DNA of 14,325 bases from an uncultured archaeon (GTDB taxonomy: Archaea > Asgardarchaeota > Lokiarchaeia > Sigyniarchaeales > SOKP01). The stretch lies in NCBI GenBank assembly GCA_964447495.1, contig CAYUTF010000084.1:1-14325 (forward strand). The letters run 5' to 3'. Below are positions 3,343-6,617 of this stretch, one piece after another. Made by a program: the position numbers and the translations under genes. The notes under the pieces are model-generated. The model worked only from the letters and a program-made list of their open reading frames with translations, searched no databases and was not told where the DNA came from. Every line of letters begins with the position of its first letter. The stretch's first letter is position 1.

Positions 3343-4353
3343 TTGGGCTTATCCGGTAAGGAATATTTTGTTCGAGATTTAATTATAGATGATGAATATG
3401 GGGTCATCAATTCAAATGCTTCTGTGCAAGATGCGGCCAAAAAAATGAAAGAATTAGGTGTTCCTGATCTTGTAGTTGTAGAAGAGGGCTCTGATAATGT
3501 TCTTGGCGTTATTGCTGATTTCGATATTGTTCAGAATGTAGTTGCAGAAGGAACGGATTGCAAAAGCGCAAAAGTTATATCCACTATGTATAAAATAGAA
3601 CCAGTAAATCTTGATACTCCTGTTTCTTTAGCTTTCACGAGGATGCGTGATTTACAAGTAAATATTGTACCTGTTGTTGAAAATGGAAAATTAGTAGGAG
3701 TTTCTAGTATACAGGATTGTTGGAGTTACATTCCTGATGAGATTCCCGATGAGAGAGGTTTAATTCCCGTCTCAAACACGCGAGTAGCTGAATTTTGGTT
3801 TGCTAGTATCTCAGCGGTCACTGCATTTATCTTAGGTATATTGTTACCGCTCGCAGGCGTTTTTGGATTTTTCATCGCTGATCAAGCAGACATAATGACT
3901 TTATTAGGTTTGGCAGATGTTAGAGGTGGTCTTCTTAACTTCTATCTCTTTGAAACACATGGCGTAGACTTTTTTGTACCAATACTCAGTTTAATACAGA
4001 AAGGCGGTCCTATATGGAGCGTCATTGTTGTAATCAGTACATTACTTTTAATTATAGGTATAATCGGTTTATTTGCGCTGATCTACTCTTCATTTGCAGA
4101 TACAAAAAATATTCGTACGGGCAATATCATTCGGATTGTAGTTCCCAGTCTTATTGTGGTTCTAATGATCGCAGAATGGATTTTCTTTGCGATAGCTTTT
4201 GCACTATCATCAATTCCCGTAGTAGCGGGGATCGATCCTATAGGACTAACGATGTCGATCATTTCCATGATTTTAATTATCGCCGCGATTAATCGAGACT
4301 ATATTTTCAAACAAAAAGGATTAAATGAATCAAAAGAAGCTGAGGTGAAATAA
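3343..4353 (+). CDS. CBS-pair (Bateman) domain fused to a 4-TM membrane domain
   Basis: VRDLI...SVQDAAKKMKELGVPDLVVVE...VLGVIADFDIV and TPVSLAFTRMRDLQVNIVPVVENGKLVGVSSIQD are two CBS repeats; four hydrophobic helices follow. TTG start with AAGTGA upstream. Confidence 0.85.
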   Translation: MGLSGKEYFVRDLIIDDEYGVINSNASVQDAAKKMKELGVPDLVVVEEGSDNVLGVIADFDIVQNVVAEGTDCKSAKVISTMYKIEPVNLDTPVSLAFTRMRDLQVNIVPVVENGKLVGVSSIQDCWSYIPDEIPDERGLIPVSNTRVAEFWFASISAVTAFILGILLPLAGVFGFFIADQADIMTLLGLADVRGGLLNFYLFETHGVDFFVPILSLIQKGGPIWSVIVVISTLLLIIGIIGLFALIYSSFADTKNIRTGNIIRIVVPSLIVVLMIAEWIFFAIAFALSSIPVVAGIDPIGLTMSIISMILIIAAINRDYIFKQKGLNESKEAEVK

Positions 4354-4357
4354 TAAG

Positions 4358-5839
4358 ATGCCTCGAGGCGGAGGTGGGATGAGAGGTGGTGGAGGATTTA
4401 GAGGAGGCGGTTTTGGTGGCGGTTTTAGAGGTGGTGGATTTCGTGGAGGTCCTAGCAGTTTTAGAATGCCACGTGGAACCCCAAGTGGAACTCCATTTGG
4501 TAGGACGGGCGCAACTCGTATAACCTCACGTTCTCCCAGTGGACCTTATAGACATAATTATTATCGTCCCTATAGGAGTTATTATCGATGGGGATACTGG
4601 GGCTATAGACCATGGTATTATCGATGGTGGTATTCTCCCTATTGGATTGGACATTGGTATCGACCTTGGTATTATTCTCCTGTGTATGTTGGCGGGGGAA
4701 TAGTCTTTGCAATTATCCTTGGATTAATACTCTTACCTCTTTTCGGTGTTGCGCTATGGTTCCCTTTTAGTAGTGCTAATGCAGATGGGTATGTCAATTA
4801 TCGATCCACAGAAACTATCTATTATAATGAATACTGGTATGAATATGAATATATTGAAGCGGGTAATCAGATTACGTATTCGGTGCAATCCTCACCTGAA
4901 GTAATCAGTTTTGCAATCTGGAACCAACCATTTGAGACTATTCCGAAGACTAATAAAGAAGGTGGCTTTGATGATTCGTTTACACTTCTAAATAATTACT
5001 ATGAATATTATTCAGTCTACTTAAAACCTGGTTCGTCTATTGATTATAATTTTAATTCGTCAAGTTCAGTAGATTTCTTTATAGCAGATGCAAACCAACT
5101 TTACAATTGGAATCAAGGGGGTAGTCCGATCTTTTATTATGAACTTAATGGAGTTCTTACAGATACGGGGGGTATTTCAATTAGTTCTGCGAAAGATTAC
5201 TATTTAGTATGGTTTAATGATTTTGGAGGTTCTGCTGATGTAGAATTCATAGCCAATTTTACTGCTGTAGATGTCTATAATCTAACAGCTGCTTATGAAT
5301 CTCATATAGCGGTCACAACCATCACCCAGGATACCTTCACAGTCCCTGTTGATGGCGACTGGTACTTTTTTGTATACTTTGATCCGCTCAATTCTCCCGC
5401 AGAATCTACAGATATAACGTTCGATGTTACCTACGATACGGGCATAAATGGCGCAGAAAGATGGGTTAGCATCTCACCAATATTAATAGGGATTCTTGTA
5501 GTAATTGTCATCATTCTCATAGCCGCAATAGTTGCTCGAAGCGGTCAAAAGAAGATGTCGAAAAAGCAACCCAAAGAAGCACAACAAGCACAAATCAAAA
5601 CGATACCCGGAAAGAAAGAAGTTGTTTCAGAATCCAAATGTATACGCTGCGGCAATTCGCTTCGACCCGACGCAAATTTCTGTCCTGTGTGTGGTGGTAA
5701 AGTTGAAGGAAGAGCTATTGGAACTAGTGATATAATTACTCCTGCAGATTCAAAAACGTGTAGTTTATGCGGAAGTAAATTAGAGGAAACCGCTAAATTC
5801 TGTAAATGGTGCGGTACTCAAGTTGAAAAGGAAATATAA
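4358..5839 (+). CDS. Two-TM membrane protein: RGG and Tyr/Trp/Arg-rich N-tail, beta-rich ectodomain, C-terminal double zinc ribbons
   Basis: Five RGG motifs in aa 3-31; Y/W/R/P-rich aa 63-110; TM about aa 115-137 and 372-393; CIRC/CPVC and CSLC/CKWC pairs in aa 428-485. SD GAGGTGA at 4342-4348 lies inside the upstream gene. Confidence 0.85.
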   Translation: MPRGGGGMRGGGGFRGGGFGGGFRGGGFRGGPSSFRMPRGTPSGTPFGRTGATRITSRSPSGPYRHNYYRPYRSYYRWGYWGYRPWYYRWWYSPYWIGHWYRPWYYSPVYVGGGIVFAIILGLILLPLFGVALWFPFSSANADGYVNYRSTETIYYNEYWYEYEYIEAGNQITYSVQSSPEVISFAIWNQPFETIPKTNKEGGFDDSFTLLNNYYEYYSVYLKPGSSIDYNFNSSSSVDFFIADANQLYNWNQGGSPIFYYELNGVLTDTGGISISSAKDYYLVWFNDFGGSADVEFIANFTAVDVYNLTAAYESHIAVTTITQDTFTVPVDGDWYFFVYFDPLNSPAESTDITFDVTYDTGINGAERWVSISPILIGILVVIVIILIAAIVARSGQKKMSKKQPKEAQQAQIKTIPGKKEVVSESKCIRCGNSLRPDANFCPVCGGKVEGRAIGTSDIITPADSKTCSLCGSKLEETAKFCKWCGTQVEKEI

Positions 5840-5936: not shown

Positions 5937-6617
5937 ATGAGTGCTTTTGGTAAATTCAGTAGATTTTATCTTAAGAGAAAAATAATCAAACTCATCTTTT
6001 ATAGCCTTTTAATTTATTTTGTTTCAGTTTATATTTTCATAAGATTAGAAATAGAATATTTCTATTATTCTATTATAATATGGGTGGGTATGGTTTTAAT
6101 TATAGTAGTGTTTTTATTTTACAAATTCAATAAAGTATGTATCACTTTAGATACTTTAAGAAAGCAAGAATTATATTTCGAAGAAACCAATAATTATGCC
6201 CTTAAAAAGAAAAAATTTACTAAAAAATATAAAAAATGGTTATTATCGAATGCAATTAATGAAAATATGGATTTAAATTACAGGCCTCCCACCATGAATA
6301 GTGGAGGGGAATGCTGTATCTATTGCTGCACCACTATTATTCCTATTCTTTTAATTGCTTCTTTTTCTGTGATCTATTTACAAAGTGAAAATGGCTGGAT
6401 AACAGTAATTCCCATAATTATCATCGTGATAATATTATATCCAATTATTAGGAAAAAATCGGATGTAAAAATGTGTAAAATGCTTGATTCCGAAATTAAA
6501 CGAATCCTTTATGAAGAAGAGACAGGATATTCTCCTTTAAGAAATGGTAAATATACTTTCAAATATAGAGCATGGTTAATTCAAAGAGATCGGGAACCAT
6601 CAAAATTTAACCATTAA
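5937..6617 (+). CDS. Hypothetical 4-TM membrane protein made of two tandem [2TM + basic motif] units
   Basis: 226-aa ORF with an ungapped internal repeat, aa 66-102 vs 178-214. Confidence 0.75.
   Translation: MSAFGKFSRFYLKRKIIKLIFYSLLIYFVSVYIFIRLEIEYFYYSIIIWVGMVLIIVVFLFYKFNKVCITLDTLRKQELYFEETNNYALKKKKFTKKYKKWLLSNAINENMDLNYRPPTMNSGGECCIYCCTTIIPILLIASFSVIYLQSENGWITVIPIIIIVIILYPIIRKKSDVKMCKMLDSEIKRILYEEETGYSPLRNGKYTFKYRAWLIQRDREPSKFNH

Follow-up and report, generated by a model that had tools for sequence, protein, structure and literature searches.

What does a Phe-spaced arginine-glycine-glycine (RGG) array do at the N-terminus of an archaeal membrane protein, when glycine-arginine-rich (GAR) or RGG domains are, to our knowledge, regarded as a eukaryotic invention? 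The question is raised by the gene P0001 (493 residues), located at positions 4358..5839 on the forward strand of a 14,325-nucleotide (nt) stretch of contig CAYUTF010000084.1 (assembly GCA_964447495.1) from an uncultured archaeon. This whole stretch is called the window below, and all of its features given here lie on the forward strand. P0001 consists of a tail, a first transmembrane segment (TM1), an outer domain, a second transmembrane segment (TM2), a Lys-rich linker, and a double zinc ribbon. An initial annotation had pointed to positions 4364–4687, which correspond to residues 3–110 of P0001, as one low-complexity tail. We found instead that the tail is composed of three modules with position-specific conservation: an FRGG(G) array, a linker with a conserved motif, and a Tyr/Trp/Arg/Pro block next to TM1. 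Judged from its homologues, the tail is real and under strong selection. We propose that it acts as a cytoplasmic arm with an interfacial block, a docking motif, and a sticky FRGG array that would cluster the receptor and bind a polyanion, probably RNA. We give this reading a probability of about 0.4.

The three modules of the tail

The array occupies residues 3–31 (4364..4450) and contains five RGG units. Its translation is identical to the residues quoted in the initial annotation, which had noted five Phe-spaced RGG; the spacers are Phe or Met. The whole tail, counted over residues 1–114, contains 17 Arg and no Lys, Asp, or Glu, and its net charge is +17. The long frames of the same genome (3.81 Mb, 223 contigs, 31.3% guanine-cytosine content, 98.4% complete) contain 8.5% Lys, 3.8% Arg, and 12.3% Asp plus Glu. 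Among 10,491 stop-to-stop frames of at least 60 residues in this genome, P0001 alone has at least three RGG within 40 residues. Its best 48-residue window contains 24 Tyr plus Trp; the runner-up frame reaches 16, and 4,411 frames average 4.8 (standard deviation 2.2). A reading of the tail as a Tat or Sec signal was rejected, as the hydrophobic segment comes only after 111 residues, 17 of them Arg.

A word-indexed search found 290 homologues at E ≤ 1e-3, of which the best 120 (52–96% identity) were listed. The tail counts refer to 121 sequences, namely the query and these 120 of the 290; 116 of them have an intact start. Where the submitters named them, the homologues come from Loki-, Hermod-, Hod-, Heimdall-, and 'Prometh'-archaeota metagenome-assembled genomes and are called zinc ribbon proteins; these names and a phylum scan agree with the earlier assignment of the DNA to a probable Asgard archaeon. 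Conservation in orthologues had been suggested as a check on the tail, which is kept in 116 of the 121 listed sequences. Each of these begins with xPRGG, and the remaining five are apparently cut at the N-terminus. The 116 tails hold 2–7 RGG (median 5) and 16–24 Arg; 115 of them lack Lys, and 115 lack Asp and Glu.

The next module (residues 32–63, 4451..4546) had been described as a Ser/Pro/Thr linker. It is more than a loose connection, because it carries a motif, PFGRTGA.R..SRSP.GPYRH (residues 46–66, nt 4493-4555), that is kept in 116 of 116 homologues. Both PFGRTG and GPY are found in all 116, and RPW[YF], in the block, in 114. When the 121 tails were aligned, 44 columns from P2 to G114 were at least 95% conserved, or 48 with four columns of TM1. 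In the motif, these columns are P46, F47, G48, R49, T50, G51, R54, R58, G62, P63, Y64, and H66.

The aromatic block spans residues 64–111 (4547..4690), and its C-terminal end at TM1 is RPWYYSPVYVGGG. The stretch of about 48 Tyr/Trp/Arg/Pro-rich residues with a repeated YRPWYY that had been noted earlier is present: the block is composed of 16 Tyr, 8 Trp, 7 Arg, 5 Pro, and no Phe among other residues, so that 24 of its 48 residues are aromatic, and YRPWYY occurs at residues 83–88 and 101–106. There are 11 adjacent aromatic pairs, a number not above that of shuffles of the same composition, and the spacers are 0–3 residues long. All seven Arg of the block (4547-4690) directly follow a Tyr, in three YRP, two YRW, one YRH, and one YRS. 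The columns conserved to at least 95% are P85, W86, Y87, W91, Y92, W96, G98, R102, P103, W104, Y105, Y106, S107, P108, and Y110, plus G112–114. Phe and Tyr/Trp are cleanly partitioned between the modules: the 116 tails contain 694 Phe before PFGRTG and 36 after it, and 40 Tyr plus Trp before it and 2,571 after it.

The ratios of nonsynonymous to synonymous differences (pN/pS) were obtained from uncorrected Nei–Gojobori counts on 12 genes of the same genus. The lowest value of P0001 lies in the tail, where the RGG array has 0.05, the linker 0.31, and the aromatic block 0.20. Elsewhere the values were 0.20 (TM1), 0.35 (outer domain), 0.33 (TM2), 0.65 (Lys-rich linker), and 0.33 (zinc ribbons). 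All four Gly codons are used in residues 1–31 (GGT 9, GGA 6, GGC 3, GGG 1), and Tandem Repeats Finder detected only a weak 27-nt period in the tail DNA (2.3 copies, 80% match). The retention of the tail in homologues, its column-wise conservation, and the low pN/pS bear out the original suggestion of selection at the protein level, for which the varied Gly codons had been cited. Three families, from more than one class of the phylum, retain the tail.

Membrane layout, outer domain, and partner gene

TM1 (residues 112–136, 4691..4765) and TM2 (residues 369–394, 5462..5539) were assigned by hydropathy; an AlphaFold2 (AF2) model places a helix at 108–128, and the last residue of TM2, R394, is nearly invariant. 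This model was built from 86 sequences and has a mean predicted local distance difference test (pLDDT) score of 79. Exactly two hydropathy peaks are present in all of the 114 full-length homologues. Their mean net charges are +18.3 in the N-terminal tail, −28.6 in the loop, and +13.8 in the C-terminal tail, and N-x-S/T sequons number 0, 329, and 29, respectively. The three sequons of P0001 (N233, N300, and N308) are all in the loop. Because the Arg-rich tail precedes TM1, the loop is acidic and bears the sequons, and the Lys-rich zinc ribbons follow TM2, both termini are most likely inside, which would make the tail and the zinc ribbons cytoplasmic. The charges, the sequons, and the two segments are in line with the cytoplasmic location that had been considered probable for the tail.

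The block adjoins the first of these segments. The pLDDT of the model climbs towards TM1, with 56 at residues 81–90, 67 at 91–100, and 84 at 101–110, and short helices appear at 86–97, in the 81–100 blocks averaging 56–67. The summed interfacial transfer energy of the block was estimated at −20.9 kcal/mol, the third most negative of the 48-residue windows in 4,289 frames; the other five of the six most negative windows read as hydrophobic, TM-like stretches. The metagenomic homologue P0127 (875 residues) retains the stretch from the aromatic block through TM1 and the outer domain to TM2, and it ends soon after TM2. An N-terminal region of about 550 residues, which reads as zinc-ribbon/TPR-like, stands where P0001 has the RGG array and the motif with PFGRTG. 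The relatives P0130 and P0144 (35–38% identity) have G/Y/W/R-rich tails without FRGG, and distant relatives without RGG (21–29% identity) have only a [RK]PW[YF].SP...G.G remnant before TM1. In 301 Asgard genomes, a profile of the latter (P0157–P0188) picked up nothing but genes with RGG and scattered zinc ribbons, and no source locus was found with one RGG-less relative, P0158, used singly. Since the block abuts TM1, is 50% aromatic, and is kept in the TPR-headed P0127, we read it as a probable juxtamembrane element, part of the membrane core at the inner interface, rather than as a liquid sticker-and-spacer region.

The outer all-beta domain (residues 137–368, 4766..5461) has a net charge of −26, and the loop was modeled by AF2 with a pLDDT above 95. 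A GOLD-type jelly roll is located inside it at residues 198–305 (nt 4949-5272). The fold search effectively covered residues ~198–305, and residues 145–197 and 306–360 were barely sampled. The best match was the GOLD domain of p24beta1 (5azw_B; Z 13.9, root-mean-square deviation (rmsd) 1.4, 87 aligned of 93), followed by those of p24gamma2 (Z 12.9), TMED1 (12.8), SPF (12.7), and p24delta1 (12.2) in entries 5gu5, 7rrm, 1o6u, and 5azx. The first folds other than GOLD were PliG (Z 10.9) and the C-terminal jelly rolls of proteases (10.6). Foldseek retrieved TMED1 with the outer domain at E 2.3e-6. As modeled, the outer domain has a GOLD-type fold.

At the sequence level, the Pfam family APD1-4_N (PF16040) matched 25 of 86 homologues at E ≤ 0.01, with a best E of 8.2e-7 at residues ~195–240; P0001 itself gave no match at E ≤ 0.01. 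When five homologues were scanned singly, three scored 28.4–29.1 bits against a cut-off of 27, one scored 26.9, and one 14.3. EMP24 (PF01105) matched one of the 86 homologues (E 0.002), and a profile searched against the sequences of the PDB gave weak zinc-ribbon matches only and no p24. The apparent sequence link between the outer domain and APD1-4_N is weak. The metagenomic protein P0136 (652 residues) has the outer domain alone, with a long region of ~40-residue repeats between two hydrophobic segments; it has neither the RGG tail nor a zinc ribbon.

A Lys-rich cytoplasmic linker (residues 395–426, 5540..5635; net charge +6), the least conserved part of P0001, leads to two CxxC...CxxC zinc ribbons (residues 427–493, 5636..5836). 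They match the Pfam family DZR (PF12773) at 3.3e-13, with 50 bits against a cut-off of 27.3, as do 81 of 86 homologues. C428, C431, C442, and C445 are invariant, and conservation reaches at least 90% at C468, C471, C482, and C485. The orthologues from one family of genomes, f24 (L024:6998-8677, L025:6806-8455, L026:6995-8659, L027:6803-8464, L028:6803-8473, and L029:6995-8644), are 550–560 residues long and have about 60 extra C-terminal residues, an end that P0001 does not have. Five of these six orthologues gave sub-threshold matches to zf-RING_4 (E 6e-4 to 8e-3, 16–20 bits against 27). If true, such a RING-like end would bring the layout nearer to that of the eukaryotic APD RING ligases.

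The gene directly upstream (3343..4353), called CBS-TM below, encodes 336 residues: a CBS pair at residues 1–135 and then four predicted TM helices. Its stop codon is separated from the ATG of P0001 by 4 nt, and a Shine–Dalgarno-like GAGGTGA read from the sequence (4341..4347), 10 nt 5′ of this ATG, lies within its end. TTG fits best as its start codon in the window (3343) and in 6 of 14 scored orthologues (loci including L015 and L024–L028). The CBS pair matches Pfam CBS at 2.8e-11 and has a net charge of −11. The AF2 model (mean pLDDT 82) shows the CBS pair followed by the four helices, and the pair aligns at Z 13–15.5 with CBS modules of known structure, several of which have a bound nucleotide. 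The TM part gave no convincing known fold, and NCBIfam returned nothing beyond CBS. Full-length alignments with MgtE, with an rmsd of ~19–21 Å, were rejected. A complex prediction of P0001 with the CBS-TM protein scored 0.11 against a mark of 0.32 and speaks neither for nor against an interaction.

The pairing of the two genes is highly regular. In 15 loci with 7-kb flanks from three families, CBS-TM is the only neighbor common beyond the genus, and it is always directly upstream on the same strand. Of 76 copies with the N-terminal part, from 75 genomes, none lacks a CBS-TM match directly upstream; the matched ends are a median of 16 nt and at most 232 nt apart. The phylum scan covered 301 genomes, and absence means that a gene was not found in the genomes searched. 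The P0001 type was found in 78 of the 301 genomes and the CBS-TM type in 77. By family, the respective counts are 52 and 49 of 68 in f1, 6 and 7 of 7 in f2, 18 and 19 of 21 in f24, and 1 and 1 of 28 in f7, with none of either type in the remaining families. One f24 genome (G214) has two copies, at C11:894-2360 and C74:6607-8112; one is of the genome's own type, and the other shares 59% identity with the type of the window. The sole f7 genome with the pair (G286:C264:1624-3099), a short-contig assembly, has the type of the window. Either mis-binning or transfer would explain the second copy in G214 and the lone f7 pair.

In a salt-marsh metatranscriptome run, a 166-nt contig is identical to positions 4137–4302 of the CBS gene and a 36-nt partial match was also found; nothing in the same run covers the tail. 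DNA carry-over is possible, and the contig is at most a hint that the CBS gene is expressed. The downstream gene (5937-6617, 226 residues) matches no Pfam family; it is TM-rich with a Cys cluster and an apparent internal repeat. It is common to the genus only and shows 34% identity in L015.

Proposed mechanism and rival readings

In the proposed mechanism, the arm is carried by an Asgard membrane protein with two passes and the shape of a receptor, which would act jointly with the CBS-domain membrane protein of the upstream gene. The Tyr/Trp/Arg/Pro block would lie on the inner membrane surface beside TM1 and would not be a free sticker region. The FRGG(G) array would act as a sticky and flexible polycation that stays close to the membrane, where it may cluster receptor copies through Phe and Arg contacts and bind a polyanion, most likely RNA. 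The array should be sticky and bind polyanions because it is free of acidic residues and tethered to the membrane, and because of the behavior of [FRGG]7 peptides. According to a 2026 preprint, these have low solubility and give amorphous assemblies whether RNA is present or not, and a single Glu substitution in [FRGG]7 leads to RNA-dependent droplets (10.64898/2026.01.26.701751). The conserved linker motif may serve a folded partner as a site of docking or modification. The arm and the two zinc ribbons would together form a cytoplasmic output face, with inputs from the outer GOLD/APD-like domain and from the nucleotide-sensing CBS partner.

Several points weigh against this mechanism. With a net charge of +17 and no acidic residue, the tail should resist self-association in the absence of a polyanion. 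The repeat period is 4, with 7 units, in the peptides of the preprint, but ~5, with 3–6 units, in the array of P0001. The identity and the pN/pS of the array are flattered, because the repeats align to one another and pS (0.58–0.75) is near saturation. The pLDDT is below 50 at residues 1–82 and 56–67 at 81–100; no structure can be claimed for 83–100, and the interfacial energy is an estimate. A folded interface with another protein, such as the CBS protein, would explain the column-wise conservation of the block just as well. Finally, one hallmark of GAR biology is without support because no eukaryote-type protein arginine methyltransferase (PRMT) was found in the genome: PRMT5 and PRMT_C gave no family match in this 98.4%-complete assembly, and the PRMT_C search matched no control genome either, so that its negative outcome carries little weight.

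A plain membrane tether for RNA or another nucleic acid, the main reading of the initial annotation, is a rival in which the whole tail with its aromatic block binds through Arg-phosphate contacts and aromatic stacking, the ribbons add affinity, and no clustering takes place. The RGG array is F-spaced like that of fibrillarin, as given in PMC9957100, its charge is polycationic and carried by Arg only, and the two zinc ribbons lie on the same side of the membrane. However, P0001 has no RRM, KH, or other RNA domain, and its zinc ribbons match ribosomal proteins only weakly (E 0.003 or worse). Moreover, the aromatic block travels with TM1 even where the RGG part is replaced, and nothing ties the locus to RNA metabolism. 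We consider such a tether unlikely.

The invariant gene pair fits another reading, a protein-protein latch, in which the arm and the motif would dock on the acidic CBS module or on another folded partner, and a nucleotide bound at CBS would release them. The net charges of the CBS module (−11) and the tail (+17) are opposite in sign, the short linker motif is kept in 116 of 116 homologues, and a TPR protein-binding scaffold can stand in for the RGG part. Opposite charges alone, however, are weak grounds. The latch is also an unlikely explanation in our judgment.

Arg and aromatic residues are the classic sticker pair, and the strict use of Arg over Lys suits cation-pi chemistry. These two facts would suit a FUS-like liquid condensate scaffold, in which Arg and Tyr/Trp stickers alone drive phase separation in two dimensions. 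In sticker-and-spacer proteins of the FUS type, however, sparse aromatic residues are evenly spaced by polar spacers at near-neutral charge. The block differs from such a prion-like domain in all of these respects, with half of its residues aromatic, 11 adjacent pairs, spacers of 0–3 residues, no acidic residue, and a tail of net +17, and it is conserved column by column. A scaffold of this kind is quite improbable. An extracellular or cleaved tail, or a neutral low-complexity expansion without function, is hardly credible: the number of units varies (2–7 RGG) and the DNA has its weak 27-nt period, but the 17 Arg before TM1, the acidic sequon-bearing loop, and the Lys-rich ribbons after TM2 point to N-in and C-in, and the pN/pS of the protein is lowest in the tail, which three families from more than one class have retained.

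Comparison with known systems

No published description of this family was found in the literature searched, and among look-alikes of the tail in the ESM Atlas the best score was 0.79 and nothing was usable. The array is F-spaced and membrane-anchored, and it is the most strongly conserved part of its protein in Asgard archaea, the closest known relatives of eukaryotes. Its host has an outer domain that appears to share the fold of the eukaryotic GOLD cargo receptors. Whether ancestry or convergence accounts for the likeness, P0001 and CBS-TM are a defined, single-copy, two-gene system, which could be used to probe Arg/aromatic multivalent assemblies in archaea and the part played in them by the CBS sensor. 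A distinctly unlikely extension of the proposed mechanism is that F-spaced RGG and R-x-PY pre-date eukaryotes and, on a GOLD/APD-like receptor, nucleate RNA-protein assemblies at the inner membrane face under the control of CBS. If true, this would be a prokaryotic forerunner of the biology of GAR domains and membrane-bound ribonucleoprotein (RNP) granules.

The outer domain resembles two eukaryotic families. It shares the GOLD beta-sandwich with the p24/TMED receptors, and the top five structural matches are all GOLD (Z 12.2–13.9). However, the p24/TMED proteins have a type-I layout with a signal peptide, a coiled coil, and a short coat-binding tail, and P0001 lacks these and has two TM segments with both termini inside. 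The sole archaeal mention of GOLD that we found concerns methanogen ESCRT neighborhoods (PMC10936438). The APD1-4 proteins are eukaryotic membrane RING E3 ligases, which PMC6118397 lists as a plant group. The region of the outer domain matches their N-terminal family in 25 of the 86 homologues, but their C-terminal RING is absent from P0001, which ends in two zinc ribbons.

The aromatic block may be likened to the membrane-proximal external region (MPER) of HIV gp41, indolicidin, and tritrpticin, which likewise have dense Trp, Tyr, Arg, and Pro at a membrane and a strongly favorable interfacial transfer energy. These are extracellular or secreted and far shorter, whereas the block has 48 residues, is predicted to be cytoplasmic, and is conserved column by column.

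R-x(2-5)-P-Y is the Pro-Tyr (PY)-type consensus of the cargo of Transportin-1, and the linker motif fits it in 116 of 116 homologues. In FET proteins and hnRNP A1, which combine RGG with a PY-type signal, as here, an RGG array leads into a basic stretch whose end is R-x(2-5)-P-Y. In contrast to the situation in these proteins, there is no nucleus here, and the f24 relatives P0123 and P0129 lack the PY. The importin-beta domain IBN_N gave no match in the genome, nor in any of 14 prokaryotic control genomes, and its absence therefore says little. The resemblance to the PY signal may be taken as a lead only.

A further comparison is with the GAR/RGG domains of eukaryotes, at the N-terminus of fibrillarin and GAR1 and the C-terminus of nucleolin. 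The RGG repeats in the GAR domain of fibrillarin are mostly separated by Phe, according to PMC9957100. Like these domains, the array of P0001 has closely placed, Phe-spaced RGG, is rich in Gly, uses Arg only, and is predicted to be disordered. The archaeal orthologues of such proteins had been said to lack GAR domains, and the fibrillarin of the same genome agrees: its frame of 236 residues, against a profile of 227 positions, has no room for one. The eukaryotic domains stand on RNA-binding or RNP proteins, whereas the array stands on an archaeal two-pass membrane protein with zinc ribbons only. It has only 2–7 RGG, and a Tyr/Trp/Arg block follows it. Convergence between the array and the eukaryotic GAR domains is likely.

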